IMG/VR virus record: IMGVR_UViG_2896054739_000007
Location: 1 to 64,000 of that record
Strand: one strand, 5' to 3'
DNA from: a virus
Lineage: Duplodnaviria; Caudoviricetes
Length of the DNA: 64,000 bases
Below are positions 5,792 through 60,029 of the stretch, one piece after another. Every line of letters starts with the position of its first letter. Position 1 is the stretch's first letter. The notes under the pieces were generated by a model. The model was given only the letters and a program-made list of their open reading frames with translations, was not told the DNA's origin and searched no databases. The position numbers and the translations under genes are program-made.

Positions 5792-6481
5792 TAACCATTC
5801 CCCTCCTCACATCGTTAATAAAGCACATCCCAAAATAATAATTCCAATACCTACAACTGCTTTCCAGTCAATCTCAAATTTCCAAAGACCATCCCATAAA
5901 TTAATCTTCATATAATTTCACCTACTTTCTCATCCTTTGAAACAGGCATCTCAACTTTTAAAATTTCTAGTCAACGCATGTAATTTTTATCTAATGTCTC
6001 GTATTTTTCAATGATACTTTCATTATTTTTACTGCCTGTTTGCCCTATTCTACCGCCAATAGTTCCAACAACATATTTATTTCTTCTACTGTAAAACCCA
6101 TATCTTATAATTCTGTATATATCCAAAACATTTTTTTTATTTCTTCGCTGCAAAACGCTTCATCAACTGTACACCCGTTATTGTTACAGTATTCATCAAC
6201 GAATTTTCTAAAATTTGAATTATATCTGTATTCATTTTTCATTAAATTTGTCATGTCCTACCTCTTCAAATTTCCATTACCGCCATCACGCAAATTTAAT
6301 GCCCAATGTGTTACAGAATCATTAAAATTTGCGTGTGTAACGACTCTTTGTGTATTACTAATTATATATTCTTCATCGCCAAGCATAGCTGTGATGAAAC
6401 CGACTGGTTTACTTAACAGTTCTTTGGCTAATGCATGGCTCGTACTAATTACTTCTAAAATTTCTAATATCTCATTTCGCT

Positions 6482-6937
6482 TTAATTGTACCTATCTACA
6501 TAATATCTGTAGATGTAATCTATTGCACGTTTCATAGCATCTTTGCCAATCTCGAATCTATCAATCTGCTCAATCTTCCAAGGATGAATATTTTTTACTT
6601 CTGAATCATCATCAATAAATCCAATAACAGGTTTACCACTGATAAACGCATATAAAATTTCATCGCTTGTTCCAAGTGAACTATGTAAATCTCTAAGGTT
6701 GCATAATACTATATCTGCTTCTCTAACCATTCTTAAATCAAATCGCATAACTTCTGTTTCAGAATGGTGATAGTTCTTACCTATCTCATAAAAATCTGTT
6801 GGCGATACAAGTGATATATCTTCATAAAGTTGCTTTACATATTTCTTTGCATCTTCTCTCCACTTTTTAGGATAGTCGTGCTGATCCGTATTAAAATAAC
6901 AACTCATAGCACCTGCAAGGTAAATTGTTTTATTCAC
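6482..6937 (-). CDS. Nucleoside 2-deoxyribosyltransferase-like protein
   Basis: IYLAGAM, D..MVREADIVL, SLGTSDE, GKPVIG. Confidence 0.82.
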   Translation of the reverse strand: MNKTIYLAGAMSCYFNTDQHDYPKKWREDAKKYVKQLYEDISLVSPTDFYEIGKNYHHSETEVMRFDLRMVREADIVLCNLRDLHSSLGTSDEILYAFISGKPVIGFIDDDSEVKNIHPWKIEQIDRFEIGKDAMKRAIDYIYRYYVDRYN

Positions 6938-7457
6938 TATCAATAACCTCCTGAACAAAATCTTTTGCTTTACCATTCAATTCTTCTTTTGTGCCACTAT
7001 TATCAATAATGAAGTCATAGTTATAATTAAATACATTTTCATCTGCCATATTAGAAGTAATATGTTTTACTGAATTTCTAATGATTAATAATGTCTTTGC
7101 ATCAAATTCTTTTACTGCTCTGGCAATTTCTTTCGGCTCTCTGATATGTAAGAATAGAAATCTACTTTCTTCGTCTTTCATAAATTCAGCAACTTTACTT
7201 TTCATACTTTCAAATGGCATATCACAATATTCACTTGTTAAAATTTTCAAATCAGATAGAAATTTTCTATCTTTTTCGGACTTTTTACCATTCCATCCTA
7301 TTTCTCTAGCTATCTCTTTTACTTTATCAACAGAAGAAAAATTAATTACTGTATGAAATTTTTTAAACAAATCATTTAATTCTGTAGATACAAATTCTAC
7401 AAATGTATCTTTACCAACTCCTCCAGAACCATTAATTATAAAAATCTGTTTATCCAA
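6930..7457 (-). CDS. P-loop nucleotide (dNMP-type) kinase
   Basis: INGSGGVGKDT Walker A; YDFIIDNSGT C-terminal motif. Confidence 0.72.
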   Translation of the reverse strand: MDKQIFIINGSGGVGKDTFVEFVSTELNDLFKKFHTVINFSSVDKVKEIAREIGWNGKKSEKDRKFLSDLKILTSEYCDMPFESMKSKVAEFMKDEESRFLFLHIREPKEIARAVKEFDAKTLLIIRNSVKHITSNMADENVFNYNYDFIIDNSGTKEELNGKAKDFVQEVIDSE

Positions 7458-7478
7458 ATGCTACCTCCTGTATTTATA

Positions 7479-7574
7479 TCATGAAATAATCTTTTCAAAG
7501 CCATGATGTGTTGCCAGTTCGTTTTCGATTGTGGACTTCCCTGATCCGGAAGCCCCTAGTAAGACAATAATCAT
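7479..7574 (-). pseudogene. gmk: Guanylate-kinase-like N-terminal fragment (31 aa)
   Basis: MIIVLLGASGSGKSTIENELATHHGFEKIIS-stop; ends just before the expected S-x-TTR motif. Confidence 0.78.
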
Positions 7575-8074
7575 ATATGTATCTTCTCCATTCTCTTATA
7601 TGTGCAAAAATTATATTCAATATTGGAATAAGTTTCCTTTTCACTTTCATATATAATTTCCCACTTTGTATTATTATCAAGATTTGGGAAAAAAGAATCT
7701 GCTTCAAAATTACTATATATTTTAGTCACATAAGCAGTATCACATTTATCTAACAGTTGCTTATAAATTGATTCTCCACCGATAACATAAATATCCTTAG
7801 TCTCATATTTTTTCAATTCGTCATATAAATCATCCAAACAATTTAATACAACTGCATTACAAACTTGATAATTAATATCATTAGTTAATATAATATTTAA
7901 TCTGCCTTTTAATGGTAGTCCATTCGGAAAACTCTCAAAAGTCTTACGACCCATAACAACAGTCTTGCCAAATGTTGAATCTTTGAAAAATCTTTGATCT
8001 TTTGGAATACGAATTAGTAATTCGTTTTTATTTCCAATTGCCCAATTTTTATCTACTGCTACAATTAAATTCAT
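7571..8074 (-). CDS. folA: Dihydrofolate reductase
   Basis: IVAVDKNWAIG, VVMGRKT, PLKGRLN, IGG, DSFFP. Confidence 0.96.
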   Translation of the reverse strand: MNLIVAVDKNWAIGNKNELLIRIPKDQRFFKDSTFGKTVVMGRKTFESFPNGLPLKGRLNIILTNDINYQVCNAVVLNCLDDLYDELKKYETKDIYVIGGESIYKQLLDKCDTAYVTKIYSNFEADSFFPNLDNNTKWEIIYESEKETYSNIEYNFCTYKRMEKIHI

Positions 8075-8084: not shown

Positions 8085-8924
8085 TTATATTCCTAATTCA
8101 AATTTTAACTGAGGTTTATTTGACTCATATCCTTTCAAAACAAAGTCATCAACAGTAATAGAATAAAAATCTTTTTTATCTGGATTTAGTTCTAATATTG
8201 GATGACAGTCGATTGGTTCTCTCTTTAACATTTCTAATGCATTATCTACATGCCTGTCATAGATTTGCTGGTTAGCAATAAAGTGTGTAAACACCCCTGG
8301 TTTATATCCACAATGTCTTGCTACCATCATCATTAACGCCACATATTGCATCTGATTTATGTTACCTGCTGTCAACCAATCAGAACTGCGCTGATACATA
8401 ATCATATCAATATATTCTCCACGAACTAAGAACTGTGTCTGATAGCAACATGGTTTTAATCCATGAGGTCTATTAAAATCTTCTTTCTGCCATAAATTAA
8501 TAATGTGCCTTCTTCCATATGGATCATTAACAATTTCATCTAAAATAGGTTTTACAAGATTATGCTTTCTTACTGTTTCTCCATAACATGAGCCGATTGT
8601 TCTGTCGCCAATATCCCATGAGTCCCACCAGTCAACATTATACTTATCTCTAAGCAAATCAAGATTATTGCTCTCATCCTGATATATCCAAAGAATTTCA
8701 CCAATAGCTTTCTTAAAATAAATTGGTCTTAATGTAGTAATTGGAAACTCATTTTTGCTAATATCATATGTATGAACCACGCTATTTACTGATAAGGTAT
8801 GTGCTGGTGTTCCATCCTCATAATGTGGTCTTGGATTTACATCTTTATATCCATCATTTAAAATATGGCTTATAGATTTAATCATATATTTATCTGCTTT
8901 TATCATTCTACTTTTACACCTCAA
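8085..8924 (-). CDS. thyA: Thymidylate synthase
   Basis: RRHI, PCC catalytic Cys, YQRSSD, N...Y, QIYDRH. Confidence 0.95.
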   Translation of the reverse strand: MRCKSRMIKADKYMIKSISHILNDGYKDVNPRPHYEDGTPAHTLSVNSVVHTYDISKNEFPITTLRPIYFKKAIGEILWIYQDESNNLDLLRDKYNVDWWDSWDIGDRTIGSCYGETVRKHNLVKPILDEIVNDPYGRRHIINLWQKEDFNRPHGLKPCCYQTQFLVRGEYIDMIMYQRSSDWLTAGNINQMQYVALMMMVARHCGYKPGVFTHFIANQQIYDRHVDNALEMLKREPIDCHPILELNPDKKDFYSITVDDFVLKGYESNKPQLKFELGI

Positions 8925-8965
8925 ACTTTCTCATATCTTCAATAAACGATGAAATAACACTTTTA

Positions 8966-12023: not shown

Positions 12024-12091
12024 CCACATTCCTCCTTTGAAACACACATTTAATTAGTAACCCATATTTCTAATTGGGGTAAAAGACTTTT

Positions 12092-14691
12092 TTATTTATC
12101 CATACCTATAATCCGTTCACCTAAATAATTCCAATCTTCTATATCATATATAACTTTCTCTTTCTTCATTTTTGTTATTACTTTAGAAACTTTCGATTTA
12201 GGGACATCAATATTAGTAATAACTTTCTCAATAAGTTCATTTTTACTCATTTGATCACCCCTAAGAATATGACATACCATATCTCTGATTTGTCCATCAT
12301 TGATTAGTTCCGAAGGATCTATAGGAGACAAGTTATAAATTTTGTATTTGTCAAGTTGAAATCCTCCCATTTCTAGTTCTTGCACCGTATCAAGGATTAT
12401 TTTATCCTTATCGCTTAATAATAAATACATCTGTTACCTCCGTTAAAATTGCGATTTAATAGTCATCTGTAAATTCACCACGTTCAATGCATTCAGCTAT
12501 TTCTTTAAATAACTTCTTTGCACATGATATGTTGATTCCGATACTTTGTTTTTCAACCCAATGTTTATCATTATCAATTTCCATATATTTGATATTGATA
12601 TTTACATCATCTTGTTCTACAACATATTTCCATGAATTATATAACTCTTGAAAATTTTATGAGTATTCTTTAATTGTATTTGTTACTGCTTTTATCTCTT
12701 CCATTTTTTTCTCCTTAAAAGACTTGTTTTATCTGTTTACAACCTTCCCATTTTCAATAACATCATTAAAGAACTCTATAACCTCTTCTTCTCCGTTGAA
12801 AGCATATTTATTACCCCAGAATGAAATATGTTTTTTGAGAAACTTTACAATATATTTTTTAAAAATATCTGTTGAGTATTCATATGTTATCTTTTCTATA
12901 TTACCACCAAGATTCTGTTCAACTTCCATTGTGGATGTTGTCATTCCAAAATAACTAAATTTAACATTTAGAATACCGAGAGATTCTGTCTTAAACCTTG
13001 TGGAAAGATTGTAGTCCATCCAGTCATAATCATATAAGTGTAAATATGTATTTGTCCTATCATCTTCAATATTGTCACTAAAAATCAAATCATTGCTATT
13101 TATTTTCTCTAAGTACACTCTACATTTTCCTCCTTTAAAAGCGTGGTTTTAAGACTTTGTTACTATATCATTTACAACAACCACCTTATACGAAGATACT
13201 TTCATCTCATCATATAATCCCCATTCACTTTCTACATTTTCAATTTTTCCTATAACAACAAATTGACCTTTAAATCCTATTACTTCCCCTTTATATAAAA
13301 AGGAAGAAGTTCCTCTATGCCTCATTGCTACAACTTTATCTCCGATTTTTATTTCATTATTTAAGAAATCTTTCATCTAAACTGCTCCTTGATAATCATT
13401 CAAATTAACTTTTTCTATAGAAACAACACTGAACCATCCAGGATTCAAACCAATCTTCTGATGAAACTCAAACATCAATTCTGATAACTTGTCCTCTAAC
13501 CATTTTCTCTCTTCATCTGTTACACCTTCATAAATGTATGTATCACAACCAGAATCATCACAATACGCTTCAGCTAATTCTTCCATAATCCTATCTGGAT
13601 CAGGATCAGTTCTCAAAGGAACAAGTTCACACTCACCAACATAAATTGTTGGATTATTTGTAGATAAACTTCTTTCAATCCATTTTTTACAACCTAAAGC
13701 ATCCTGTATTGCTTCTTCTTTTGTATTAAATGTGCCATGTGTCCAATTTTCATTATCTGTTTCGTTCCATGACCATAACATTTATTTTCACCTCTCAATC
13801 ATTTCAAATGCTTTTCTCATGCCTTCCATGAAGTCAGTCCCATCCAAATTATCGTCTATATACTTCTCCAATTTATCTATCTGTTCATTTAAATAATCTA
13901 AACTTTCTGATATATCACCATAATCATTATATCTTTGTTCTAATTCATTTTTCTCGTTTTCTAATTTCTGATATGCTGCATATAATTCTTCGCTTGGTTC
14001 TCCACATATCTCTTCTACTTTCTGAGAAAATTCATTACCAATATTTTCAGATACAATTCTGAGAACATCTGATAAATCTTTGGCTTGCTCCCAATTCTCA
14101 TTTATCATTATCATAAATTTATTTTCTCCTTTTAATCGAATAACGAAATGTGTTTTAACCCCTCTTCCAAATCATTCGCCTTACGAAATTGTTTAATATC
14201 TTCTTCCGTTTTTGCAATTAGTAGTTGATTTTTTGCTTTTTTAATTCTACTCTGTAAAAGTAACATCTCATTCTGTAACTCACTCAATGTGTTAAAATAT
14301 TCTTGCTTAACTTTTTCAATATCCATTTTTATATCCTTTCCTACTACTTAAAACCTATCTTTCATGGTTTTGTTTCAATCCAATAAGAAACAAATCTTTT
14401 CCTAAAATTACTTTCCTTAATATATTCATAGGCAGGATAACAAGACATACTAGCTATCCCTTTTTCGTAAAGATAATTAACAAATAATTCTGTAAATCTA
14501 TGGTTACAATCTGTCCAAATTATTCCTATGTCTTCTTTTATATCATTTAAAAATCCGACACAGCCATCAATATATCCTTCATACAATTTTTCTACTTTTC
14601 CTCTGCCAAAATATTCATAAATGATTATTGGATAGGGTCTACCACTTGAAAATTGATAATTTTCATCAGTATCTATAATTATTTCTCTCAT
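12092..14691 (-). other. Block of small hypothetical phage ORFs (12092-12430, 12729-13118, 13149-13376, 13377-13781, 13788-14114, 14132-14326, 14362-14691)
   Basis: ORF track, most with SD sequences; no recognisable motifs. Confidence 0.7.
12456..12704 (-). pseudogene. Small ORF with an in-frame premature TAA
   Basis: AAGGAG + ATG GAA GAG...TAC TCA TAA AAT TTT..., same frame continues to the stop at 12456. Confidence 0.55.
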
Positions 14692-15457: not shown

Positions 15458-15501
15458 CTTTATACATTATTCCATGAAAGTCCTATTTCATCACCTTGTT
15501 C

Positions 15502-15549
15502 AGTCTATATATAGTAGTTTGCAAAATTCAAAACCGCTATATATAGACT
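15502..15549. promoter_or_regulatory. Tandem NrdR-box pair
   Basis: agtCTATATATAGtag (15502) and ccgCTATATATAGact (15534), 32 bp apart. Confidence 0.65.
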
Positions 15550-15553: not shown

Positions 15554-17824
15554 TTATGCTACTTTTCCCTCTAACATCATCCATGTGTTCCGTTTATTAT
15601 GACTTGTACGAATACATTGCAAAAATGCTTGTGGTTCTGCCAACAGTAGACATCTTTTCTTTGCTCTTGTAAGCAGCGTATACAACATACAGTTATCCAA
15701 AAGTTGATGATGTGTGTTATCAATAATTCCAATCACAATCTTCCTACCGGCTCCCTGTAACTTATGTACGGTCATTGCATAAGCAAGATCCAAAGCTGTC
15801 AGTTCTTTCTTTGTATACTCAATCAATTTTTCTTTTCCAAAAATATCAGTATAGGTTACTACACAATATTCCTCTTTCTTTTTGCCATTCTGTCTCTCAC
15901 TGATTTCTGTTATATATCCTATTTCTCCGTTGAACACATTCTTATCGTAATCATTTACTGTCTGCATCACTTTCGCACCCAATTTAAATGTCATCTCAAA
16001 ACCAGATATACTTTGCAATACATCTCCTAGCAACTTCTCCTGAATTGTTTTATTCAGTTCATTTGTACTATTCAAGCAATCTTTTCTTCGTGGTACTGTA
16101 ATAACAACATTATCAATCCCATCAGACTCTACCGATTTTAGAAATGTCTTAACTGCAATATCAAATAATGATTGCCTATTTGTACGGAACATATAATACA
16201 TATCCTGTAACTCACCATGAATAATTCTCGGTTGTAACTTTTCAGTTATAGGGTTGATGTTTTCACGGATCAGATTTGCGTCTACAAGAATGCCAGACTT
16301 TTCAGCTTGTCTCATTGGCTTAACCAGTTTACTTACTACTGTATCATCAAACATTTCTATTAAATCAGAAAATACATTACCAAATCCTATTGGTGGCAAC
16401 TGCTTATGATCTCCAGAAATAATAATTCTTGTATTATCATCAATGGCTTCTAACCAGTGTAGAAATAAACTGGCATTTACCATACTTCCCTCGTCAAGAA
16501 ACGCAACGCTTGTAATCAAGTGATTATCCTTATTAAAATCAAACTTATTCAAACCTTTACATCCCAATGTCCTATGAATCGTCATAGCAGGAAATGATGT
16601 TGCTTCAGTGATTCTCTGTGCTGCCATAGCCGATAAAGCAGATGCCGTTAATGTAAATTGGTTTTCTGTATATGCTTTCACAATCGCTCTCATAATGGAT
16701 GTCTTACCAGTACCAGCCTTCCCAGTTATTAAGCTGATTGTTCTATGCAGACTTTTATTGATTGTATCAAGCTGTTCTACTACATATTGGAATCCTTGTT
16801 CTTCTTCTGCATGTCTGATCGCCTGTTCTATTTTTTCATCAGAAATATTAATGTCCGTCTGTTTCTTAGACTTTTCAAGCAGTATATTATAAATCTGCAT
16901 TTCGATATCGTGATAATATTTCAGCCCTACTCTATCTTCTGATATGTGTAAAAACTCATTGTTTTCCAATAACCAATCCGTTTTATCGGCACACTCAGGA
17001 ACACTATTACTTATTGCCGACTTTAGAATTTTAACTGAACACCAAGTATGACCACTACTTTCTCCCAAATCTGTGAAATAGTATTTTATAAACGCAACCA
17101 ATCTTTCAGTTGTATTTATGAGTTCTGGCTTCAATTTTAATGCCAAGTCATCGACTTTCTTAAACCCAAGCCCATTAATTTTTGTAAGTATATAAGGATT
17201 TTCTTCTAATTGCTGTTTTAACAATGCCGGATTAGGTTCATCTGTTAGAAGTTTTTTAATCATCGTATATGTAACTCCTAATGGCTTTAACATTGTGATA
17301 ATGTCTGAAATCAGATAATTATTGATGATCTTGTCCTTAATCCTGTTCCAAGTAAGTTCTCTAACTCCCTTTACTAAATCATAATCAATTTCTTTTAACG
17401 TGCCATTTGCCACATCATTTACTACATTTGGGTACACACTTATTAAATTCTCCGCAATCCAAGGTGAAATAATGGATTGCAGAAACATTAACTGTGACTC
17501 TTTTGTTTGTGGTATAAGAGCATATATGGCTATTGGTGTATACTGATGACCATATGTTTTGTCATACTTATACCTAGCCTTTATCATATATTCTCCACCG
17601 ACAACCAATTCCTGCATTTTGCCAGCCAAAGAACTAAACTTTTTATCTGGATCGACTTCTTTACTATCTTCAAATGGTAAATCCATTTTTGTTTCTTTTG
17701 TATATTGAGGAATATCATCGTTTGTGTAAAAACCATATACGCCCCAAGTGGTATCTGAATTGTAGTATCGTTCATAAGTTATTACTGCTTTAAATTTCAA
17801 AATATCTTCATCGTTTTCAAACAA
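15554..17824 (-). CDS. recD2: RecD2-like SF1B helicase
   Basis: TGKAGTGKT, DEGSM, GDHKQLP, RQA, FNGEIG, AYAMTVHKLQG, YTLLTRAK. Confidence 0.93.
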   Translation of the reverse strand: MFENDEDILKFKAVITYERYYNSDTTWGVYGFYTNDDIPQYTKETKMDLPFEDSKEVDPDKKFSSLAGKMQELVVGGEYMIKARYKYDKTYGHQYTPIAIYALIPQTKESQLMFLQSIISPWIAENLISVYPNVVNDVANGTLKEIDYDLVKGVRELTWNRIKDKIINNYLISDIITMLKPLGVTYTMIKKLLTDEPNPALLKQQLEENPYILTKINGLGFKKVDDLALKLKPELINTTERLVAFIKYYFTDLGESSGHTWCSVKILKSAISNSVPECADKTDWLLENNEFLHISEDRVGLKYYHDIEMQIYNILLEKSKKQTDINISDEKIEQAIRHAEEEQGFQYVVEQLDTINKSLHRTISLITGKAGTGKTSIMRAIVKAYTENQFTLTASALSAMAAQRITEATSFPAMTIHRTLGCKGLNKFDFNKDNHLITSVAFLDEGSMVNASLFLHWLEAIDDNTRIIISGDHKQLPPIGFGNVFSDLIEMFDDTVVSKLVKPMRQAEKSGILVDANLIRENINPITEKLQPRIIHGELQDMYYMFRTNRQSLFDIAVKTFLKSVESDGIDNVVITVPRRKDCLNSTNELNKTIQEKLLGDVLQSISGFEMTFKLGAKVMQTVNDYDKNVFNGEIGYITEISERQNGKKKEEYCVVTYTDIFGKEKLIEYTKKELTALDLAYAMTVHKLQGAGRKIVIGIIDNTHHQLLDNCMLYTLLTRAKKRCLLLAEPQAFLQCIRTSHNKRNTWMMLEGKVA

Positions 17825-17826
17825 AT

Positions 17827-21144: not shown

Positions 21145-21152
21145 TCAATCAC

Positions 21153-46698: not shown

Positions 46699-46837
46699 TC
46701 TATTTTGCCTCCTGTTTTGTATCATAAGCAATTTTGACTTTGTATCTATATAATTTTATAAAAAATACAAAGTCCGTTACATCAAATTAGACTATAGCAA
46801 CTTTGTATCAATGCAATATTATATATATAAAATTACA

Positions 46838-46887
46838 TAGATTTTAGTGATTAGAATATATCTATCACCTTTCGGCAGCAAAATCTA
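46838..46887 (-). ncRNA. Second copy of the scaffold element, upstream of the nuclease gene
   Basis: TAGATTTT-gctgccgaaa-GGTGATAGA-loop-TCTAATCACT-AAAATCTA. Confidence 0.55.
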
Positions 46888-46958
46888 CCGTAGTTTATAC
46901 TAATTGTTGGTGGATTTTTTCCACCATTTTTCCAATAAAATCTCGAATTTATTGCTTA

Positions 46959-47870
46959 TTAATGTGACATTTTATCTGCTCTATGTAACTTCATTACTTT
47001 ATCATACAACCATTCGCCCCAAAATCGCTCATATTTTGACATTGTATCTTCTCCATGTTCTTTATCTTTTTCCCAAAAGTACGGAAACATATGTAAATTA
47101 ATCAAAATTGATACATCTAATTTATCTACACCAGACGGATATAAATAAAACAGACTGTCATATGCACCTACACAATGATGCTGATAGTAATGTGCTATAT
47201 TCGTTGTTTCTCCTTTTGAATTTACAAAAGTCTTTGTAAACGGTTTCCCACAATCATGTAAAAAACCAGCACATTCCAATAGTTTATCTTGTGCTAAAAA
47301 TGCACTTACTTTTCTACAATGTAATCCAAGAGTCATTGAATGATGTGGATTATCCTGCTCATAATTTAAATGATTATTTACCCAACATCCCATCACCTTA
47401 CGAATATCATCTTTAAATTCAATTGAAATATCATCCCACCCTTCAAACCAATAGGGTGTATTCCAATTCATATACATTCTTTTGATCACATCATATGGAA
47501 CATTTCTATCTCTTGAATCATTCCTATTACAACATTCAGCAAACGGTGTTGCCATAATAACGCACTTTTTATAACAAGGAATATTTTTTAATTCAGATAA
47601 AAATGCTCTACGCCTTTTTGAATTGATGTTGGTAGCATCATAAATAACATTTTTACCTTCTTTTAAATTCCCCTTGATTCTATCATGTAAAACTTTAAAA
47701 ACTTCTTCATTTTTATCCTGCGAATTTATATCACCACACAATTCTTTTCTAATTGTGTCTGAACTACAAATTATTGCTTCTAAATCATTTGATAATTCTT
47801 TTGCATAGGTAGATTTACCAGAGCCAGGCAAACCTACCATCATAACAAAAGTTGGTTTTGTATTATTCAT
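46959..47870 (-). CDS. Polynucleotide-kinase-like P-loop domain fused to an HD domain
   Basis: GLPGSGKST, SSD.IR, YDATN, HH...H, LHDCGKP. Confidence 0.85.
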   Translation of the reverse strand: MNNTKPTFVMMVGLPGSGKSTYAKELSNDLEAIICSSDTIRKELCGDINSQDKNEEVFKVLHDRIKGNLKEGKNVIYDATNINSKRRRAFLSELKNIPCYKKCVIMATPFAECCNRNDSRDRNVPYDVIKRMYMNWNTPYWFEGWDDISIEFKDDIRKVMGCWVNNHLNYEQDNPHHSMTLGLHCRKVSAFLAQDKLLECAGFLHDCGKPFTKTFVNSKGETTNIAHYYQHHCVGAYDSLFYLYPSGVDKLDVSILINLHMFPYFWEKDKEHGEDTMSKYERFWGEWLYDKVMKLHRADKMSH

Positions 47871-49194
47871 TTATAACTAACTCCTCTGCTTCCTCCATAT
47901 CTGGAGTATCCGCTTTATCCTTAATAATCCCTTCAAGTACCTTAAAACTGAAATTCTTATGTTTATATGCCGTAAATTTCTCTCGATTGTCAATTCTCAC
48001 TACAACTCCTTCTCTTACATGGGTCTTGCCAATCGGATCAGCACCATCATAATACTTCTCCACTCTCTCCATCAGATCTTCCCATGTAGTAAATACAAAT
48101 TTCTCAAAAGTAGGAACACACTTAATCCCTAGCTTCTCACATTCAATCTGTACCTGCTCCCAAGGAAGTTCTACAGCAAATCCATCCTCATTTGTCATAG
48201 TCATTCGATATACATAAATATCATTTTCGCCTGGTTTACACCCATATGAGAATACAGTTTCCTTACCATACTGTTTTTCAAATTCCTTATCTTTGACAAG
48301 TTTATTTGAACATCTTCCCATAATTGTCTGATCGCCTTCTGTATATCCAACAATCTCATAGAATACTTCTACACCTTTTGGAAGTTTATCTTTAAAAAAG
48401 TCCTGATATTTCTGTCTGAACGCATTACTACCATAATAGCCACCTTCATAATTTCTTAATGTGGTTCTTCTTGTCCCACTAACAACTGCAAATCGCTTAA
48501 TCTCTTTATCCCTAATTTTGAATACCTTCTTTAAAATAAAATGTCTCTTCTTTTTTACAATCTCAATAGCATTTGCAGTTCTAGCAGATGTACCATGCAT
48601 TTTAAGTGTTATGTAACAGGTATCGCCCTCTCTAAAAGCATTCTGATTATATGCAAGCTGCGCAGTATCAATATGCTCTACAAAAAATGGATAAGAAACT
48701 TTTTCCTTCTCTTCTTTCCTATTTCTATTTTTATTACCAGTGGAATTGTTTTCACATCTTCTCCGATTAGAATGCGGAATATATTTTCTACAAATTTCAT
48801 GTCCATCCAACATAGAAATCTGGTCACCATCTGATAATGTTTTTACATCTACATATTTACTTAATACTTCGATTGGCAATACAAGCCCGTCTGACTTTTC
48901 ACCTCTAAGTTTAAGAGCTGTGATATTTCTCTTATCAGGATCAAGATATCCTCCAACATTATTTCCGTTTTCGTCCTTTAAACGAACAAGATTATTATCA
49001 CATGCAAACTCTTCACTTAATTGTCCATCCACAGGGAAATAAATTACTCTCTGTCCTTCTGTATAATTCAAATCTACAATTACATTATTTCCAAAGATTG
49101 TTGCACACTGCAATCTATCAGCATTACTATGTTTTCTAAGCTGCTTAATCGTTGTTATATATCCACAATATCCATTTACTCTATTCTGTTCCAA
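47863..49194 (-). CDS. RNA ligase (DRB0094/Rnl2-like)
   Basis: HSNADRL N-terminal OB domain, TLKMHGTS adenylation motif, EGVV, YK.K. Confidence 0.82.
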   Translation of the reverse strand: MEQNRVNGYCGYITTIKQLRKHSNADRLQCATIFGNNVIVDLNYTEGQRVIYFPVDGQLSEEFACDNNLVRLKDENGNNVGGYLDPDKRNITALKLRGEKSDGLVLPIEVLSKYVDVKTLSDGDQISMLDGHEICRKYIPHSNRRRCENNSTGNKNRNRKEEKEKVSYPFFVEHIDTAQLAYNQNAFREGDTCYITLKMHGTSARTANAIEIVKKKRHFILKKVFKIRDKEIKRFAVVSGTRRTTLRNYEGGYYGSNAFRQKYQDFFKDKLPKGVEVFYEIVGYTEGDQTIMGRCSNKLVKDKEFEKQYGKETVFSYGCKPGENDIYVYRMTMTNEDGFAVELPWEQVQIECEKLGIKCVPTFEKFVFTTWEDLMERVEKYYDGADPIGKTHVREGVVVRIDNREKFTAYKHKNFSFKVLEGIIKDKADTPDMEEAEELVINE

Positions 49195-50711
49195 ATTTGC
49201 TTACCGTCATAAGCTGTGCGCACTTTTCACCTATAGGAACTTCTGATTTTATCCTTTCTTTTATTTAATATGAATTTACAAATCTAATCTTTGTTACATC
49301 AGATGGGATTTTAGTTAAGTCCACTTCAAAAAAATCTCTACAACAATCATCTGCATATTCTCTTATTGCATCTTTAGGTAATTCTGTTACAATTCCATCT
49401 TCACATATTTCTCCATCAAAAAATTTCAGTATTTCATCTGGAGGTGATATATTAATTTCTTTACAGGCATTATAAATGTGTAATTTCTTTTCATACTCTT
49501 CTGTTTTTGGTTTCAATCCCTGTATATAAGAATACATGCTCATATTTTTCTCCTTTTCTCCCAATGAAATGCAAGTTTAATTGACTCCACCTTTTCTAAT
49601 AATACTCTCACATGCTCGTGTTCCTATTGCTCTATAATACTTATGTGGAACACTAACAGTATCCATTTTCCTTGATTTTGCTTTCATTTCGGCTACGACA
49701 TTTTCTATGTCATAAGCAGTTTTTTCTTTATCCAATAAAGAAATTACATCATCATAAGGCGCACCAGCTTTTACCAATGCTTGTAAAAAATTTTTAAACC
49801 CATCTGCATCAATTAACCTCACTTAAACACCTCATCAAATTATCCCAATGCTTATCTATACATTCTCTAAATTCTTTACCACATCTCTTATAACTCTTCT
49901 TTGATTTGATTTTAATATCAGAACCATAATATCCACTTGACTGCCCCTTATGTATATAACTCTTCTCTTTTTTGCTATCGAAGCAATAACAAATATATGG
50001 ATCATACATATATGATGGTTCCATACCAAATAAAATTCTAAATCTGTTATCTTCTAATTCTATTTTGAAATCGAAACCGCCAATATCATCAATAATTTCA
50101 TCTTTTAATGAATTTAGAGCATCTTCAAAAAATAGTTTTGCAGTCTCATTGAACTTTTCATTATCTGTCCATTCGTTATCAAAAATTACTGGCGATGGAT
50201 TCCCAATACCAATGCAAACATTTCCTATTAATCTTCTACGCATTAGTCACCATCCTGTTCCTGTGGTTCCAATCCCATTCTCATTCGCAAAACATCTTCC
50301 TCAATCTGATCTGTGTTGGTTTTGATTTCTCTGCCAAAAGCGTCTTTGATAATAATATTAACATCTTCCATATTCACTTACTCCTTAATCAAAATCGCCA
50401 TCCAGTATTCGCAATCGTATACATTTCCACCAACTTCTCCAGCATAACCACAATTGGTAGAAGAAATTTTATATCCTTGTAAAATTAGCCTATCTACTTT
50501 TTCTTTAAATACCTTATGGTCATTTTCACTAACAGTTTCTATCATGTATTTATCACCTCTCTCCATATGAATCGCAGATTTCAACAATTGTATTTTTGCA
50601 AACGTCATGATATAATTTTTATAAGTTGATAGATATGTATATCATTTGCTATTTATGACTTCGAACTTGATTAACTTAAGTTACCAAAATCTTTAGTCGG
50701 AGGTAGCTGAT

Positions 50712-51785: not shown

Positions 51786-53635
51786 TTAATTATTCTCCTC
51801 ATTTACAACCACGTTCTTAGAGTCATCCATCGCTTTCATAGCCCTCAGATATGCTTCTGTCTGAATCGCAATCTGTTCTTCACGTTTCTTAACTGTTCTA
51901 CGTTCCTTATAAGCAAGTCTCTTGGCACGTTTCTTCTCAATTCGCTCTTGTTCTTCCTTCTGATGCTTCTCAAACTCTAACTTCTTCTCATAGACCTTCA
52001 TACCACGTTTAATCGCATTATTATAAGCTGAAGATCCACCCATAATTTTCTTTGAAATGCAGATAGAAATTGCAGACTCCAAACTGAATGTATCAGGTTC
52101 TCTACATACAGATTTCTCTTTTGTTCCATCTGCAAAAGTTACTTCTACAACCTTGTTTGGCACAATTGGATTGACATCTACAATTTTAATATCTTTCTCT
52201 CTACATGCTAAAATTTTTTCAATTGGTAACATTTCTGTATTAAATGCTCTAACATAATAATCCATCATATTCTCTCCTCCATAACTTGAACATTTTTTAT
52301 TTTCTAAATAGTTATAAATTATTTCTCTTAATGGTATTCCGGCCAATAATGCTTGATTTACTTTATCTAAACATGCAATATAATCACCCCAACTCAAAGA
52401 ATGCCTTTGTAAAGTCATGCAAAAATTATCAACAACACAATCTTCTTCATTAGTAATTGTTTTCATAATAGTTTTTTGTTCGTCAATTTTCCTTCGTATT
52501 TCTAATTCTCTTTGTTTACTTTCTCTTATAAAGTTTCTATCCAATCATATACAATATTTATATTAGTCACCTTCCTTTGAAACGGAAATTTTATTAAATA
52601 CTCTAATTTTCTGTGTTATATTTTTCTTGTAACATTTTAAAATGATCTTTACAGTTCTCCAAAGCTTCAAATTCAGTATTTCCATATCCTATTACAGATA
52701 TAGAAATCCCCTCGTAATCAACAATAGAATATTCACATTTCCAAACGGGTTCATTTTCTTTCATCTGCATATATGCATCTTTACAATTACATTTAATTTC
52801 ATATTTTTCATGTACTTGTGACCAAGGACTATTAATCCAAACAGCCCATTCTTCCATATCGTCTTTTGTTAATTCTTCATCATTCTCTTTATAAAAACTA
52901 ATAAAATCATCTGTATAATAAACAATTTCTTCATTATAACAAAAACTACCTGCTTTATATTTCTTCATTTTGTCACCTATTTAAACAGAAAATCAATGCT
53001 TTCTTTTTGAATCTTTAATCTTTTTATGTCTTTGTATTTGATAATCAAACTCTTGTAAAGTTTTATCTGTACATTCTAAAATTTCCAAATAAGGAGTAGA
53101 TAAGGTGCCAAAAAGTTCAATCCAATGAACTATAACAATACGGTTTTCTTTATCAATTTTGGGAATTGTATAACCAACGATACTATATTTATATTCATCA
53201 ATAATTTTATCTATTTGTTTCCATATCTTATAATAATCTTGGTTACAATTTATCTCAAAAAGTTTATCACGTTTATTATTCGTATCTACTAAATGTAATT
53301 TCATAAATTTTTCCCTCCTTAAAACTCGTGCTTCAACTACTTAACAATATAGTTTTTATAATTGCTAATATTTTTCTTTTCTGCCATCTCTACAGATATA
53401 ACACGAACACACCAATCTACAAATAAACAATACTGATTGGGTAATTTATCATGCAGATATTTTCTAATTCTTTCAGATAATAATATATGTCCTCTATCAA
53501 TCGCACTGTGAGAATATTCATCTTCGTACTCGTCTTCTCTTAAATATAATTCGTGAGAAAGTAAACCTGTTTCTACATCTTTGACAAAAATGTTATACTG
53601 ATCTTCTACCTCGTAATTCATAATAAACCTCTCTT

Positions 53636-56137: not shown

Positions 56138-57086
56138 AATATCTCTCCTTTTCTATTTGTGTGTTTAATATATACTTCTCTTTTTGCACTTGAAAGTTTC
56201 ATTTTATTGACTTCTTGACTAAATTTCCGCAACAATATGTACCAACCATGTCAAAAGTCTGTTTACATTTACATTGTTTCTTCTTTACATCATCATCAGA
56301 CATCCAAACCTGATGTAGTCTGCACCAATATGTAGGATTTTTGCAGATTTTATTGTCAAGCCCCATGAATGGGTGTCTTTGGTCTGCTATTTGGTAGGTC
56401 ATTGGGTATCACTCCAATCTCTGACCGCATTTGTGGCAATAATTACTCCCACCGACCGGTTCTGTGCCGCAAACGGGGCATTCATAACTATTAAAACCGC
56501 AATATGAATCTAAAACCCTTTTCTTCCCCCTCTGCCTTTCCCTTGCCTCCCAGCATTCTTCGACTGTGCCGATTGCTCGGTATTGCTGGATTTCTTCAAG
56601 AGAAGATATGGAAAGAGTTAGTGCATCCGAAAATTTGCAGAAATCCTTCAATTCTTTATCGCTCATATCCTTTCCCCTAGCAAAATTCATTCTATCTTCA
56701 CAAAACTTTGCAATTAGTTTCTTTGCTTCATTCTCCGTCATCCTATCACCTCACACCACAAAATCAAATTTTCATTGACAAAACATACTAATAAAGCATT
56801 TGTCCGCAACCACAATATCCTGGATATTTCATCAAGTTGTGACACTTTGGACAAAAATATTTTCCTTCAATTATTTCTCTTGAAATTGCGACTTGTTTTT
56901 CCAGAGCAATAATCGCTACAGAAATTGCTTGCCCCAATTCACATTCAGTATCGTCAAAACCGCCTACATATCTTCCATCAATCATTTTTGCAGTTTTTGG
57001 ATAATTTTTCTTTAATATTTCTATTGCATCTCTAGCTTCCATATAATTCTCCAACCTTTCCACGAAATGAATTTTTCATCGCCTTA

Positions 57087-57662: not shown

Positions 57663-57843
57663 TCCTTTACAAGTTCCTTTTCTACAGAATATTTTAAATT
57701 TTCACATACATATCCTTTGTTTAATTCTTCTTCAACCAGCTCTGAAATATCATCGGTAGAATTGTCTGTGATATCTATTTCCACATCTGTATAAAATGAA
57801 CACTTCACCCTAAATCGTCTTTTCATAAATCCTCCGTTTAAAC

Positions 57844-57891
57844 ACACTATATACTGTATTTTCTGTGTTTGCTATATACTATATATAGTAC
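57844..57891. promoter_or_regulatory. Tandem NrdR-box pair
   Basis: acaCTATATACTGtat (57844) and ataCTATATATAGtac (57876), 32 bp apart. Confidence 0.65.
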
Positions 57892-58507
57892 ATGAGTTGC
57901 CATAAAATGTTAGATTCATTGGGTATCAAATTACATCTTCTGTGTAATCTGATACATCAATTAACCAATTCCCTTCATCATCTTTAACATTAAGTAATAT
58001 TAGCCATGAAACAATTCGATGATATAGAACTTCATAAAATTCTGTACAACCATCCGCATTTAACCATCGTTTTTCCTGAAATGCTTCATCAACAATTACA
58101 TTCTGCCAAAAACTCCTAATTCTATCTGGTGTAAGAAACACTTCTACACATCTGTTAAACCATAAATGAAGCATAAACTTATATGATAAAACAGGAAGTT
58201 TTTCTTTTGGAATACAATAATATTTTCTATAATATGCGTCTAAAGCATCTTCTAATGTTTTATATTTATCCTGATCATAAAGACCTTTACATATCATAAG
58301 AATATCGTTTTCTGTAGTTTTCACTGTAACTCTCCTCAAATATTCATTAATGCAATTACATCTGCTACTGAAATATGTTTTTCTTTTGCTTTGCTAATAA
58401 TTTTATCATGATCAGGATCAAATCCAGATTTATCATCACATCCACATTCGCATCCATCGTATTCATCATAACATGTACAGAAATAACACTTATCAAATTC
58501 ATTCATA

Positions 58508-59350
58508 TTACACCTCTCCTACATTCACAAACCGTTCAATATATTCTCTGCCATCACCTTTGAAAATTGGAATATCATAATCAACAATCCAATTATTCTC
58601 ACCCTGTTTCGGATCACGCAATATACACTTTTCCTTTACGCCATCTGATTCAAGAATAATTCGATTTCTAACCACACAGCTCCCACGCTTCTGATATGTA
58701 GGAAAGTCATTCCAATTAATACCTTTCTGAGTCATGAGCATATCCTGAATGTCATTACAAGATTTAAACTGTAACTCCTTATGACTGAAATTTGCTTGTC
58801 CTACCATCTGAATACTATTTCTGGATGCGTCAAGTTGCCGCCAGTAGAAGTAATTTGTCGCTTCTTCTCGTGGAATATTAAAGACTCTGGCATCAAACAT
58901 GGCTCCTGAATAAGCAACCTCAAAATATCTATCCATTGTTTTTGTATTATCAACCTTCAAATCAGACACAGTTTCACTGAATATCCGATTAAAAGCCATA
59001 GTCGCCATACTTGCAGAAATACTACACATTTTCTGTATTTCATAATCAAACCATGCCGACGTTTCAAATCTCTGATAATCAATTAGTAACAAAGAAATTT
59101 CATCTGACTGTGTATAGGCTAATGAGCAACCTTGTATATTCTCGCAAAGATATTTCGCTGTTTCCTGCATTGTCATAATAAGAACATCATCAAAAGGTCT
59201 TTTGAATCCTCTGGTGAATGTATGAAACGCCTTACCATCAATCCGAATCACAACTGGCGTTCTTCTCATTAATTTTGTCTTAGGGATTTCTTCATAAAAT
59301 GTTTTCATTCGATTTCCTAAATCATCTCTCTTCATTTTCTTATCACTCAT
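58508..59350 (-). CDS. tRNA(His) guanylyltransferase Thg1-like
   Basis: RIDGKAFHTFT, YTQSDEISL, FDARVF, WRQLDASRNS, KRG. Confidence 0.93.
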   Translation of the reverse strand: MSDKKMKRDDLGNRMKTFYEEIPKTKLMRRTPVVIRIDGKAFHTFTRGFKRPFDDVLIMTMQETAKYLCENIQGCSLAYTQSDEISLLLIDYQRFETSAWFDYEIQKMCSISASMATMAFNRIFSETVSDLKVDNTKTMDRYFEVAYSGAMFDARVFNIPREEATNYFYWRQLDASRNSIQMVGQANFSHKELQFKSCNDIQDMLMTQKGINWNDFPTYQKRGSCVVRNRIILESDGVKEKCILRDPKQGENNWIVDYDIPIFKGDGREYIERFVNVGEV

Positions 59351-60029
59351 GACTATTTCTCCTACAGTTCATCAACCTTTTTGTGCATCAAATCCAACAG
59401 TTCCTTTTTCTGTTCCTGTAACTCCTTAATTGCAAGTGCAGTAACCTCAACACTTAATCCACAATTCGATATATAATTCTGCTTCTTGGTAATTTCAAAT
59501 ACTGCACTTTCCAACTCAGCTAATGACATTGGTAGAGTTTTCTTACACTCCTTATCACCAAAAATAATACATCTGCCATAATTCATAATATTTTTCTCCT
59601 TTTCTCTTCAATTTTCCCTTTGAAATGCGGCTTCTATTACATGCATAACATATTCATCAATTCACAGACTGGTGCAAAATAAGGTTTCTGTCTCACCACG
59701 AAATCTTTTTCAAATTCGGAAATCAACTTTTGTAATTCTTCATATTTTTTATTGATTTCGCAAATCCTTTTCTGTCTTTCTTTCTCAAGTTTTTCTTTCA
59801 TTGCTTTACCATCCCGCATTTTCTGCTCATGTTCACAACATTCCTGCTCTGTATTAAATACCTTATTATCATCACTTATATATCTCACTGTTCAATAGCC
59901 TCCTTATTGAAATAAATAATTTGTCCGTTTTCTGTCGAAACGTTTTTTCTTGTTATATTATTCTCCTTCCTCGTTTTGGAATTAACATACTCCTGAAAAT
60001 TAATAATAATTGCCATCTTCTTATCCTCT

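Follow-up and report, generated by a model that had tools for sequence, protein, structure and literature searches.

In a large prophage of a bacterium from the mouse gut, a short, symmetric DNA motif recurs about 50 times at the gene junctions of the early arm. Most likely, with a probability of about one half, this motif serves a phage protein as binding site and also marks points of gene exchange, i.e., it is an operator- or stoperator-like boundary element with shuffling of the kind described for the PeSL motif of T4-type phages as a by-product. An earlier note had described the motif and had interpreted it as part of an integron-like array; its observation was confirmed, its interpretation is partly supported.

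A dyad motif at gene junctions of the prophage early arm

The prophage is integrated and comprises at least 160 kb, and the motif is located in its early minus-strand arm. The phage is temperate, as indicated by an integrase gene at a sharp host/phage GC step and by a CI-like HTH+S24 gene. The consensus has 18 bp and is dyad-symmetric, W-T-R-A-A-A-(not A)-N4-(not T)-T-T-T-Y-A-W. The form scored was the core TRAAA-N6-TTTYA, i.e., T(G/A)AAA-N6-TTT(C/T)A, which the consensus extends by a W on each side; the half-site centres are 11 bp apart, which is one helical turn. The window, i.e., the whole stretch of 64,000 nucleotides that was analysed, contains 18 exact copies, compared to 3.36 +/- 1.67 and a maximum of 7 in dinucleotide shuffles. 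The 17 exact copies counted earlier between 5938 and 59636 were recovered, together with one outside this range, and 16 junction copies with one mismatch were also found, including those listed in the earlier note at 5938, 46936, 49565, 53320 and 59621. The sites, given without strand and in window coordinates, are:

2899-2914, exact copy from the motif scan, outside the range of the earlier note
5938-5953, 1-mismatch junction copy, TGAGATGCCTGTTTCA in mRNA sense
6209-6224, 1-mismatch junction copy
7482-7497, exact copy abutting the called stop of a 70-aa ORF (7495-7707)
8950-8965, exact copy; G001 homology starts at its 5' edge
12038-12053, 1-mismatch junction copy; G001 block boundary
12444-12459, 1-mismatch junction copy
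12716-12731, exact copy that supplies the stop codon (TAA)
13136-13151, exact copy that supplies the stop codon (TAA), SD 2 nt later
14349-14364, exact copy that supplies the stop codon (TGA)
15475-15490, exact copy downstream of a RecD2-like helicase, end of the replisome module; four differing downstream contexts from its 3' edge in relatives
29561-29576, exact copy, upstream side of the replisome module
30482-30497, exact copy that supplies the stop codon (TGA)
31344-31359, exact copy
32323-32338, exact copy; next start codon 14 nt on
33701-33716, exact copy that supplies the stop codon (TAA)
35234-35249, 1-mismatch copy; its TGA is the stop codon
36062-36077, exact copy following the LemA pair; G002 homology stops just beyond its 3' edge
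37752-37767, exact copy
38181-38196, 1-mismatch junction copy
41888-41903, 1-mismatch copy; G001 block boundary, N6 identical in both
42913-42928, 1-mismatch copy; G001 block boundary, N6 identical in both
43177-43192, exact copy
44956-44971, exact copy, downstream side (mRNA sense) of the TnpB/Cas12f-like region, past a 104-aa ORF (44975-45289)
46936-46951, 1-mismatch junction copy
49565-49580, 1-mismatch junction copy
50568-50583, 1-mismatch junction copy; next start codon 22 nt on
52578-52593, exact copy; the sole case of relatives' homology breaking within N6 (TTTC|CG versus CCCA|CG)
53320-53335, 1-mismatch junction copy adjoining the reverse-transcriptase (DGR) region
56191-56206, exact copy
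56759-56774, 1-mismatch copy; G001 homology starts exactly at its 5' edge
57063-57078, 1-mismatch junction copy
57903-57918, 1-mismatch junction copy
59621-59636, 1-mismatch junction copy; exact in G002, N6 identical

The 70-aa ORF at 7495-7707 is perhaps not real, because it shares bases with the DHFR gene (7571-8074) and matches no Pfam family.

Contig C112 has 44 exact copies, 32 of them within 30.5-119 kb (third-order Markov simulations: 5.2), and 127 copies with at most one mismatch versus 77 expected; from this excess we take about 50 sites of the contig to be real. When all 5-mer inverted repeats with spacers of 0-10 were ranked, TGAAA-N6-TTTCA came first (16 versus 0.6), and thus the motif is the most over-represented dyad of the prophage early arm. 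Outside the prophage, the 4.5-Mb genome contains 1.8 copies per 64 kb without any cluster; within the host genome the motif is therefore specific to the prophage.

All genes of the window, as called with a simple in-house ORF caller, are on the minus strand. In mRNA sense the motif starts 0-17 nt past the upstream stop codon, 0 being the mode, its own T(G/A)A serves as the stop codon in 14 of 36 sites, and the next SD usually lies 1-6 nt beyond it, so that the described placement, overlapping or abutting the upstream stop and just before the next SD, holds. N6 can itself contain the SD, e.g., TAAAAGGAGAGTTTTAttATG. The distance to the upstream stop is tight, but anywhere from 11 to more than 100 nt separate the motif from the next start codon. 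Junction windows make up 13% of the bases of the 30.5-119 kb block of C112 and harbor 26 of its 32 exact copies, and at stop-to-SD junctions copies are about 13-fold concentrated. Within the junction windows (11.6 kb), 146 left half-sites were found, with a right half-site at a spacer of 6 in 26 cases and at other spacers in 0-4 cases each, and the reversed half-site control yielded 0-3 pairs. The junction enrichment thus persists with stop-codon and AT bias controlled, and it is restricted to spacer 6. At the replisome junctions (15554-28565) no copy with up to one mismatch was found, as had been noted for the core replisome, and the module is flanked by exact copies at 15475 and 29561.

Conservation in the phage family

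The top dyad is TGAAA in C112, G001 and G002, and TAAAA in G004 (28 versus 4.2) and in the 42%-GC genome G005 (23 versus 0.8); close relatives use TGAAA, the 82% and 63% clades TAAAA. The junction after the helicase has retained a motif in the clades from 99% down to 82%, but with differing N6. Selection thus maintains the motif throughout the family, whereas N6 is free to change. In the sister clades G008 and G009 there are instead about 40 copies of CAATAC(A/G)AAATTAT(T/A)G, some of them between the -35 and -10 of TTGACA/TATAAT promoters (sigma-A) in variable register, others directly before SDs without a promoter. This twofold occurrence at promoters and SD junctions fits an operator-plus-stoperator reading. 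Two other relatives have no such motif.

Gene swaps at motif edges

Junctions with a motif were broken between relatives in a ratio of 35:4, motif-less junctions in a ratio of 63:30, and for gap-length-matched junctions the ratios were 28:3 and 18:13, respectively; the comparisons with G001 and G002 are not independent, and the p-values are therefore optimistic. The motifs thus bound separately inherited units, which supports the earlier statement that the sites bracket modules. Several swaps begin 0-2 nt from a motif edge, and one motif is followed by four different downstream contexts that start 0-2 nt after it. In the comparison of relatives' breakpoints with the motif, which had been proposed as a check, breakpoints often fall exactly at an edge, but only about one third are at motifs and about two thirds elsewhere, and a single one is inside N6, where they had been expected (52578). 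Otherwise N6 stays whole with the retained neighbor, nine times with the downstream gene and six times with the upstream gene. Among 37 replacement events, a single one begins and ends at motifs, with shared centres.

Given how sharp the breakpoints are, recombination could be the primary role of the motif, which would then act as a PeSL-like linker at which relaxed homologous or microhomology exchange by phage or host enzymes joins modules in register, without a dedicated site-specific enzyme. This is a possible but tentative alternative. It accounts for homology blocks that end a few nucleotides from motif edges, for an N6 that travels with either neighbor, for the four downstream contexts past the same motif and for the excess of broken junctions, also after gap matching, and it has precedents in PeSL (PMC2839356, PMC4122927) and in the inter-repeat deletions of Cluster O mycobacteriophages (PMC4351075). 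However, an identity of 5-6 bp per half-site is very short for homology-driven exchange, and second-order selection for evolvability is unlikely to fix half-sites from the 99% to the 63% clades while N6 drifts. Furthermore, the majority of breakpoints lies away from motifs, and junctions with exact motifs, taken alone, show no excess of breaks (14:4 versus 84:30).

Tyrosine recombinases and the 6-bp centre

Three tyrosine recombinases with apparently intact catalytic residues are encoded in the prophage:

Window 1-1359, Yrec1, a 452-aa integrase at the host/prophage border
C112 100508-101503, Yrec2, in the motif-rich arm
C112 143853-144806, Yrec3

In the model of the earlier note, such an enzyme would bind the inverted arms and cut at the flanks of the 6-bp centre, and accessory genes would thereby be inserted, deleted or swapped, comparable to integrons, pdif modules or Tn916. 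The inverted 5-N6-5 geometry and the three recombinases are in agreement with this, with identical arms, breakpoints at motif edges cannot be distinguished from cuts between arm and spacer, either parental N6 could result if the enzyme tolerated heterology in the overlap, and the one event with motifs at both ends has shared centres. Nevertheless, we regard a cassette system as unlikely. Tyrosine recombinases are present in all 10 genomes compared, motif-less relatives included, and none of their ortholog groups tracks the motif; Yrec2 has a partial 31% match in G004 and none in G005, and Yrec3 has 23% identity in G004 and 51% in G005, although both genomes carry the TAAAA form. The recombinase proposed as one candidate enzyme (given as 1-1206) lies at the prophage/host border, a position typical of an integrase. 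The conserved arms span only 6-7 bp and are weakest next to the spacer, and thus an HTH operator fits better than the 11-13-bp arm of a recombinase core site. In addition, array polarity is inconsistent and an attI-like site beside a recombinase gene is missing, and the small share of breakpoints at motifs and the single both-ended event also argue against an integron-like array.

Exchange by Cre, Xer and lambda Int requires matching centres. The motif centres all differ within the genome, which blocks ordinary tyrosine-recombinase exchange, and they drift at an orthologous junction (TAGGAC to TGACCA). That all centres differ is correct (18 of 18 exact copies in the window), but it is no signal, because 33 random draws from 4096 hexamers would all be different with a probability of about 0.88 (our own arithmetic), and therefore unique centres carry no information. 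N6 is thus a free spacer and not the slot address that had been suggested, as it drifts, can hold an SD and is unique by chance. Known site families also differ. Integron attC sites have 57-141 bp, fold as single strands, have a fixed polarity and lie beside intI/attI, and pdif sites have 11-bp arms recognized by XerC and XerD. The motif resembles both in its inverted conserved arms around a variable centre that flank accessory genes, but it has none of their length, folding, polarity, intI/attI or 11-bp-arm features.

A double-stranded DNA site

Positions 2 and 15 vary independently (G..C 16, A..C 9, G..T 4, A..T 3), positions 5 and 12 deviate one-sidedly, with 17-22 cases of (A,A) plus (T,T) per genome and one compensating (T,A), and the flanking W positions are not mutually complementary. 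Free energies of RNA hairpins range from 0 to -3.8 kcal/mol, with z values of -1.35 to +0.65 versus shuffles. The independent halves, the lack of compensating changes and a hairpin stability equal to that of shuffled sequence argue for a double-stranded DNA site of a symmetric dimer, as the earlier note had favored over an RNA hairpin. A is avoided at position 6 and, symmetrically, T at position 11, and, in the manner of HTH operators, the outer positions are strict and the inner ones, 5 and 12, relaxed.

Even less probable than a cassette system is a signal in the polycistronic early mRNAs, i.e., a small hairpin or a single-stranded motif pair between stop and SD for processing, e.g., by a phage PemK/MazF-like endoribonuclease, for mRNA stability or for termination-reinitiation coupling. 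The tight fit between stop codon (offset 0 as the mode) and SD would suit it, and the PemK/MazF-like RNase is the only gene family that matches the presence of the motif among 39 related records: the 99-91%, 82% and 63% clades have it, whereas the 80%, 73%, 59% and 53% clades lack it. However, a common origin of the early arm would account equally well for this profile, and the LemA pair has nearly the same one. Reverse-complement symmetry at seven or more constrained positions would be meaningless for recognition of single-stranded RNA, two variable pairs lack compensatory changes, hairpins are no more stable than shuffled sequence, the motif has no Rfam match, and the analogous 16-mer of G008 and G009 also occurs upstream of transcription starts, within promoters. 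The motif shares its 5-N6-5 frame with the sigma-54 consensus TGGCA-N6-TTGCA (-24/-12 promoter) and lies upstream of many genes, as would suit a promoter recognized by an alternative or phage-specific sigma factor. This reading is very improbable, because transcripts starting about 10 nt downstream would lack the SD, which lies 1-6 nt after the motif, the distance is tight to the upstream stop and not to the start codon, perfect two-fold degeneracy is unexpected for an asymmetric sigma contact, and some copies are followed, at no fixed distance, by ordinary TTGACA/TATAAT-like promoters.

A probable boundary element for a phage DNA-binding protein

Under the preferred reading, a docking site at module boundaries, a symmetric dimer of a putative phage-encoded DNA-binding protein would most likely bind the two half-sites and leave the centre uncontacted. 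The approximately 50 copies would lie between transcription or inheritance modules, packed into minimal junctions where they overlap the stop and abut or contain the SD. They may serve genome-wide control of transcription across module boundaries, as operators and roadblocks comparable to Cluster A mycobacteriophage stoperators. At the same time, half-sites that are identical at many junctions would offer crossover points, and modules would thereby be swapped exactly at motif edges, as with PeSL. RNA contigs from one metatranscriptome span the sites 36062 and 37752, which suggests that these two are not absolute blocks. The lysis-lysogeny switch region (C112 119-128 kb) has no motif copy and uses other operators, namely promoter-overlapping repeats of GTAATACCTAG. 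Relatives that carry the motif lack a homolog of the CI-like S24 repressor. A Crp-type HTH is not encoded on C112. None of the copies on C112 is embedded in a recognizable promoter, and scans for promoters and terminators gave no more hits than shuffled sequence.

Several phages have comparable elements. Cluster A stoperators (L5 gp71 type) are asymmetric repressor sites of 13-14 bp that a monomer binds and that follow the direction of transcription; dozens of copies of one short site are spread over a temperate genome, mainly in tiny intergenic gaps overlapping stop or start codons, and the same sequence is the promoter operator (PMC9283540, PMC6550527). Shared features are the many copies and the short gaps overlapping codons, and operator use is seen in the sister clades G008 and G009; in contrast, the present motif is symmetric and bipartite with a free 6-bp spacer and is missing from the switch region. 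Cluster O mycobacteriophages have more than 30 copies of the 17-bp dyad TGTTCGG-N3-CCGAACA, denser in one long same-strand operon, many in short intergenic gaps and one third within genes, which were interpreted as sites for a dimeric regulator and between which deletions occurred among relatives (PMC4351075). The numerous dyads, the same-strand arm, the short gaps and the breaks among relatives are alike, whereas arms (7 bp) and spacer (3 bp), host phylum and phage type differ, and 26 of 32 exact copies are here in junction windows, hugging stop and SD. PeSL is a conserved regulatory motif that flanks small accessory genes in variable early regions, and insertions, deletions and replacements between relatives break at it (PMC2839356, PMC4122927). 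An early-region motif beside accessory genes with breaks between relatives is common to both; however, PeSL is a longer composite of promoter and terminator stem-loop with tens of bp of homology, while the present motif has 16-18 bp with 10-12 fixed positions and neither promoter nor stable hairpin.

The SPBRE repeats of SPbeta, a temperate 134-kb Bacillus prophage (Firmicutes), are intergenic, had been proposed in silico as repressor sites and were later confirmed by ChAP-seq to be bound by MrpR (YopR), a protein with a tyrosine-recombinase fold that has lost catalysis (PMC10516654). Both are repeated intergenic elements of a large temperate phage, but SPBRE has about 10 copies in promoter regions, compared to about 50 at junctions here, and the two Xer-like proteins of the present phage are probably not MrpR-like, because the catalytic R, K, H-x-x-R, H and Y are kept. 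MrpR exemplifies that recombinase-like site geometry can serve repression (PMC10516654). Most likely, therefore, the junction motif belongs to a type of element that other phages also have and is no new integron-like system.

Prophage Setting and Gene Content

The window corresponds to positions 27646-91645 of C112, a contig of 190 kb in a genome of 4.7 Mb and 282 contigs. The first 27 kb of C112 have the host GC content, 0.42-0.45; at about 27.3 kb the GC content drops to 0.27-0.33 and stays there until at least 189 kb, and this step reveals that the contig carries an integrated prophage of 160 kb or more. Neither att repeats nor a tRNA were found at the prophage ends, and the right end may lie past the contig. 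Every gene of the window is carried by the minus strand; this early arm extends to about 126 kb of C112, where the plus-strand late arm starts. The stretch is contained in mouse-gut metagenomes of at least ten studies. No near-identical phage record was found in INPHARED; for PolIII, Clostridium phage Amboise matches best, with 50%. The gene content of the window is as follows.

Genes of the window (window coordinates where noted; all minus strand)
1-1359: tyrosine recombinase of 452 aa at the left host/prophage border (Yrec1)
Replication genes: DnaE-type PolIII alpha, RecD2-like helicase, RecJ-like protein, NAD-dependent ligase
Other genes: NrdD and its activase, a TnpB/Cas12f-like gene, a reverse transcriptase
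6930-7457: P-loop protein, after the ORF of the next line
7495-7707: ORF of 70 aa without a Pfam match, overlapping the end of the DHFR gene (7571-8074) in another frame
62809-62958: a pair of adjacent tRNA genes carried by the phage (Rfam, 44.6 and 62.9 bits)

RNA contigs of one metatranscriptome run (X17) cover 33853-38079 including the LemA pair, with several adjoining bins uncovered, and on this contig evidence of a single run, expression of the block as a module in lysogeny seems possible.

A Dyad Is Enriched Between Stop Codon and Shine-Dalgarno Sequence

The motif TRAAA-N6-TTTYA consists of two 5-bp half-sites around a 6-bp centre (N6), with a flanking W. Its over-representation at gene junctions, claimed in the earlier note, was confirmed: the window contains 18 exact copies versus 3.36 +/- 1.67 in shuffles, and TGAAA-N6-TTTCA ranks first (16 versus 0.6) among all 5-mer inverted repeats with spacers of 0-10 in an unbiased scan. 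Between 30.5 and 119 kb of C112 there are 32 exact copies, with 5.2 expected from third-order Markov simulations, and 127 copies with at most one mismatch versus 77 expected. Junction windows, which make up 13% of the bases, contain 26 of the 32 exact sites. Of the 146 left half-sites within these windows (11.6 kb), 26 have a right half-site at spacer 6, versus 0-4 at each other spacer; the junction excess is thus specific for spacer 6, and it persists after the control for stop codons and AT bias that had been proposed. Sixteen one-mismatch junction copies agree with the list compiled previously. The replisome block (15554-28565), in which no convincing junction copy had been seen, indeed has none with at most one mismatch, and exact copies flank it at 15475 and 29561. 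The plus-strand late arm carries about six junction-type copies, and the rest of the genome shows neither enrichment nor a cluster of the motif.

In mRNA orientation the motif starts 0-17 nt past the upstream stop codon. The mode is offset 0, at which the stop codon is the motif's own TGA or TAA, and the Shine-Dalgarno sequence (SD) typically follows 1-6 nt after the motif. In long junctions the motif lies more often near the stop than near the following start. A scan of 28501-48500 for sigma-70 promoters and intrinsic terminators was uninformative, with 102 promoter-like sequences versus 122.6 in shuffles, and 5 versus 5.0 terminator-like ones. Apart from the motif, a box was observed at the borders of the replisome block:

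15502-15518 and 29588-29604, minus strand: ACTACTATATAT(A/T)G, the only two copies on the contig

Each copy begins about 28 nt upstream of a replisome-flanking motif copy and is kept in the 91-99% relatives; possible readings of the box are a module-specific promoter and a flanking repeat.

The Symmetry Is That of a Double-Stranded DNA Site

The earlier note had preferred a protein site on double-stranded DNA over an RNA hairpin, and this preference proved well founded, as there is no compensatory change and hairpins remain at the level of shuffles. Positions 2 and 15 vary independently (G..C 16, A..C 9, G..T 4, A..T 3). In copies with one mismatch, the deviation is mostly at position 5 or 12, and it is one-sided: (A,A) and (T,T) together occur 17-22 times per genome, the compensating (T,A) once. 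The W at -1 and +1 is symmetric, yet not mutually complementary, and A is avoided at position 6 and T at position 11. Folding predictions give RNA hairpins of 0 to -3.8 kcal/mol, which are not more stable than those of shuffled sequence, and the Rfam search returned the two tRNAs and no match to the motif. The two-fold symmetry without compensatory pairing and the weak hairpins therefore argue for a double-stranded DNA site of about 18 bp. Its conserved part is W+5 bp per arm, with random sequence beyond and with positions 5 and 12 as the most degenerate ones. The half-site centres are 11 bp apart, the outer positions are strict, the inner ones loose, and the centre is free; judged from sequence, this layout is typical of the footprint of dimeric HTH-type proteins. 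The arms of recombinase sites are 11-13 bp long and best conserved beside the spacer, and the arms of the motif differ from this.

Related Phages Carry Variants of the Dyad, Another Element, or None

A query with PolIII alpha retrieved 80 related IMG/VR loci with 53-99% identity, and nine whole related records were fetched for comparison.

Junction elements in clades of related phage records
Clade 99% (G001, G002): TGAAA-N6-TTTCA as top dyad
Clade 91% (G003): TGAAA-N6-TTTCA, weaker signal
Clade 82% (G004, 217 kb): TAAAA-N6-TTTTA, 28 versus 4.2 expected
Clade 63% (G005, 136 kb, 42% GC): TAAAA-N6-TTTTA, 23 versus 0.8 expected
Clades 80% and 73% (G006, G010): no motif enrichment and no other dyad
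Clades 59% and 53% (G008, G009): about 40 copies of CAATAC(A/G)AAATTAT(T/A)G (for example G009 13212, 27674, 39086, 42039 and 121995; related loci L135-L150)

The change from TGAAA to TAAAA shows that both half-sites have shifted jointly between clades, yet they vary independently within a genome. Where junctions of G004 and G005 are compact, the N6 doubles as the SD, and in one case the right half-site and the start codon overlap.

The 5-N6-5 frame recurs in the 16-mer of G008 and G009, which is found in two contexts, namely between the -35 and -10 boxes of TTGACA/TATAAT promoters, with a register shifting by 2 nt, and immediately before SDs with no promoter nearby. Since it is present inside promoters, from which it is not transcribed, as well as at junctions, a DNA-binding regulator is argued for. 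By its placement in the sequence, the 16-mer resembles an operator-plus-stoperator system that takes the place of the TRAAA dyad in these clades; such an arrangement is described for Cluster A mycobacteriophages (PMC9283540).

Candidate Binders and Recombinases

The following genes and repeats outside the window were considered.

Features of C112
100508-101503 (L125:8863-9858), minus: Xer-like tyrosine recombinase Yrec2, catalytic residues apparently intact
120366-121167 (L123:2367-3168): PemK/MazF-like gene (157 aa, Pfam E 4.5e-13) and a divergent 66-aa Cro/C1-type HTH gene
126284-126556 (L123 about 8285-8557): 3-4 copies of GTAATACCTAG or its complement in the divergent early/late control region
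143853-144806 (L122:3853-4806), plus: Xer-like tyrosine recombinase Yrec3, catalytic residues apparently intact
183694-184443: CI-like HTH+S24 gene

Phyletic profiling of all ORFs in ten genomes found only a MazF-like family and the LemA pair to be specific to motif-bearing genomes, and across 39 related records the PemK/MazF-like family was the sole one to match motif presence, occurring in exactly the motif-bearing clades. In close relatives the MazF-like gene adjoins the divergent 66-aa HTH_26 gene. The symmetry of the site disfavors a role of this protein at the RNA level, and the profile of the LemA pair is nearly equal; the match is therefore read as common ancestry of the early arm. The divergent HTH_26/MazF-like pair was rejected as binder because its intergenic region has only a near-miss site, TAAAA-N7-TTTTC. 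The CI-like HTH+S24 gene has no homolog in the motif-bearing relatives G001-G005, and a Crp-type HTH protein is not encoded on the contig. The lysis-lysogeny region (C112 119-128 kb) contains several small XRE-type HTH genes and operators of its own, and no motif copy. The GTAATACCTAG repeats there overlap promoters of the TTGACA...TAAAAT type and, going by their position, are probably operators of the lysis-lysogeny switch that are distinct from the junction motif.

The prophage encodes three tyrosine recombinases, Yrec1 to Yrec3. Tyrosine recombinases are encoded in all ten genomes compared, the motif-less ones included, and no ortholog group tracks the motif. The recombinase at 1-1359, which the earlier note had called as 1-1206 and named as a candidate enzyme, lies at the prophage border, and this speaks against it in the same way as the missing ortholog pattern. 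Aligned with XerH and XerD, Yrec2 and Yrec3 retain R, K, H-x-x-R, H and Y; they may serve in dimer resolution or inversion.

Mosaic Breakpoints at the Edges of the Motif

The early arms of close relatives are strongly mosaic: 220 ORFs called in the early arm of C112 have only 52 counterparts in G001 and 62 in G002, with PolIII 99% identical. Blastn yielded 104 block ends, and for 19 of them a motif with at most one mismatch is no more than 12 nt away. At these 19 ends homology stops sharply, at the 5' edge of the motif if the downstream gene is common and at the 3' edge if the upstream gene is; the N6 accompanies the retained neighbour (downstream in 9 cases, upstream in 6) and differs in 3. 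Crossover within the N6 had been anticipated, but a single breakpoint, at 52578, falls there, and the others are at outer motif edges. In 37 collinear replacement or indel events about one third of the breakpoints are at motifs and the remainder elsewhere.

With the replisome excluded, the ratio of broken to intact junctions is 35:4 with a motif and 63:30 without (odds ratio 4.2, p = 0.009), and 28:3 versus 18:13 for junctions matched in gap length; these tests use our own ORF calls and two relatives that are not independent. Exact motifs alone show no excess of breaks (14:4 versus 84:30). For the mouse-gut reads, assembled contigs were used; their joints have short sides of about 20-60 nt and resemble cross-matches between related phages or motifs, and none of the loose ends listed for them coincides with a motif. 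They yield no clean deletion or circle of a cassette.

The junction after the helicase gene is particularly instructive. The upstream sequence, the motif and its N6, TAGGAC, are common to five lineages at 91-99%, and four unrelated downstream sequences start 0-2 nt past the motif. The 82% clade keeps the motif at this junction with TGACCA as N6, so that the proposal that unique centres serve as slot addresses did not hold. The sharp ends of homology and this junction indicate that crossovers at or within the half-sites are real, and that the N6 is not a conserved address.

A Proposed Regulatory Site Versus a Possible Dedicated Exchange System

We favor, with a probability of about 0.5, the reading that the motif is a phage-specific site for a candidate dimeric DNA-binding protein at the module boundaries of the early arm, most plausibly acting on transcription across them, and that its half-sites are crossover points. 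A dimeric protein would dock at the half-sites of the boundary dyads and, once docked, control transcription across the boundaries; the repeated half-sites would double as crossover points between modules, and this would explain the precise module junctions.

A true exchange site, at which a phage enzyme, be it a Xer-like recombinase that tolerates mismatches between centres or some unknown nuclease or annealase, recognizes the half-sites and precisely there joins modules of different phages, seems unlikely to us. The integron-like cassette system of tyrosine-recombinase type envisaged at the outset is quite improbable: identical footprints would result if the arm/spacer boundary were cut, but polarity, an attI-adjacent integrase and maintained pairing are absent. 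Integron cassettes combine one ORF and one site with fixed polarity and crossover, whereas here the N6 may stay with either neighbour, and only one of the 37 events is bounded on both sides by motifs, with the same centres. IntI recognizes folded single-strand attC sites, and the integrase and attI are conserved with the array beside them. The motif also differs from the pdif sites of the Xer/dif system, which have two 11-bp arms best conserved beside a 6-8-bp centre, precisely where the motif is most degenerate. Module boundaries coincide with pdif sites; of the breakpoints here, about one third are at motifs, many of them exactly at the edge, and the others elsewhere.

By analogy, we group the motif with four known cases. 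With stoperators it shares many dispersed copies (here about 50) in short gaps of a temperate phage with an integrase; a stoperator site doubles as early-promoter operator, which is seen for the 16-mer of G008 and G009, but not in C112 with its other switch operators. Stoperators are bound by the immunity repressor, which halts elongation there. The second case is the 17-bp dyad repeats of Cluster O phages, for which deletions between repeats have been noted (PMC4351075), and the third is SPBRE, the SPbeta repeat bound by MrpR (PMC10516654). MrpR has a tyrosine-recombinase fold and is catalytically dead, in contrast to Yrec2 and Yrec3, the two candidates compared. The fourth, for the shuffling aspect, is the promoter-early stem-loop (PeSL; PMC2839356). 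As at PeSLs, a subset of the indels and replacements between close relatives breaks at the motif; however, a PeSL combines an early promoter with a terminator stem-loop, and the motif lacks -35/-10 boxes at a fixed register, a stable stem and a U-tract.

Significance for Large Temperate Gut Phages

To our knowledge, almost none of the dispersed junction palindromes of uncultivated phages has a known binder or function, and the motif is a well-documented instance of this known, yet unexplained, kind of feature. If it were a true exchange site, it would represent a dedicated "plug-and-socket" system for accessory genes in large temperate gut phages, and an enzyme-driven process would explain the clean shuffling of defence and accessory genes in them. 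The family itself is a comparative series of related genomes of 110-220 kb with TGAAA, TAAAA, another 16-mer, or nothing, and this series should enable experimenters to pin down the cognate protein, and to test insulation or repression as well as mosaic exchange by one and the same element.
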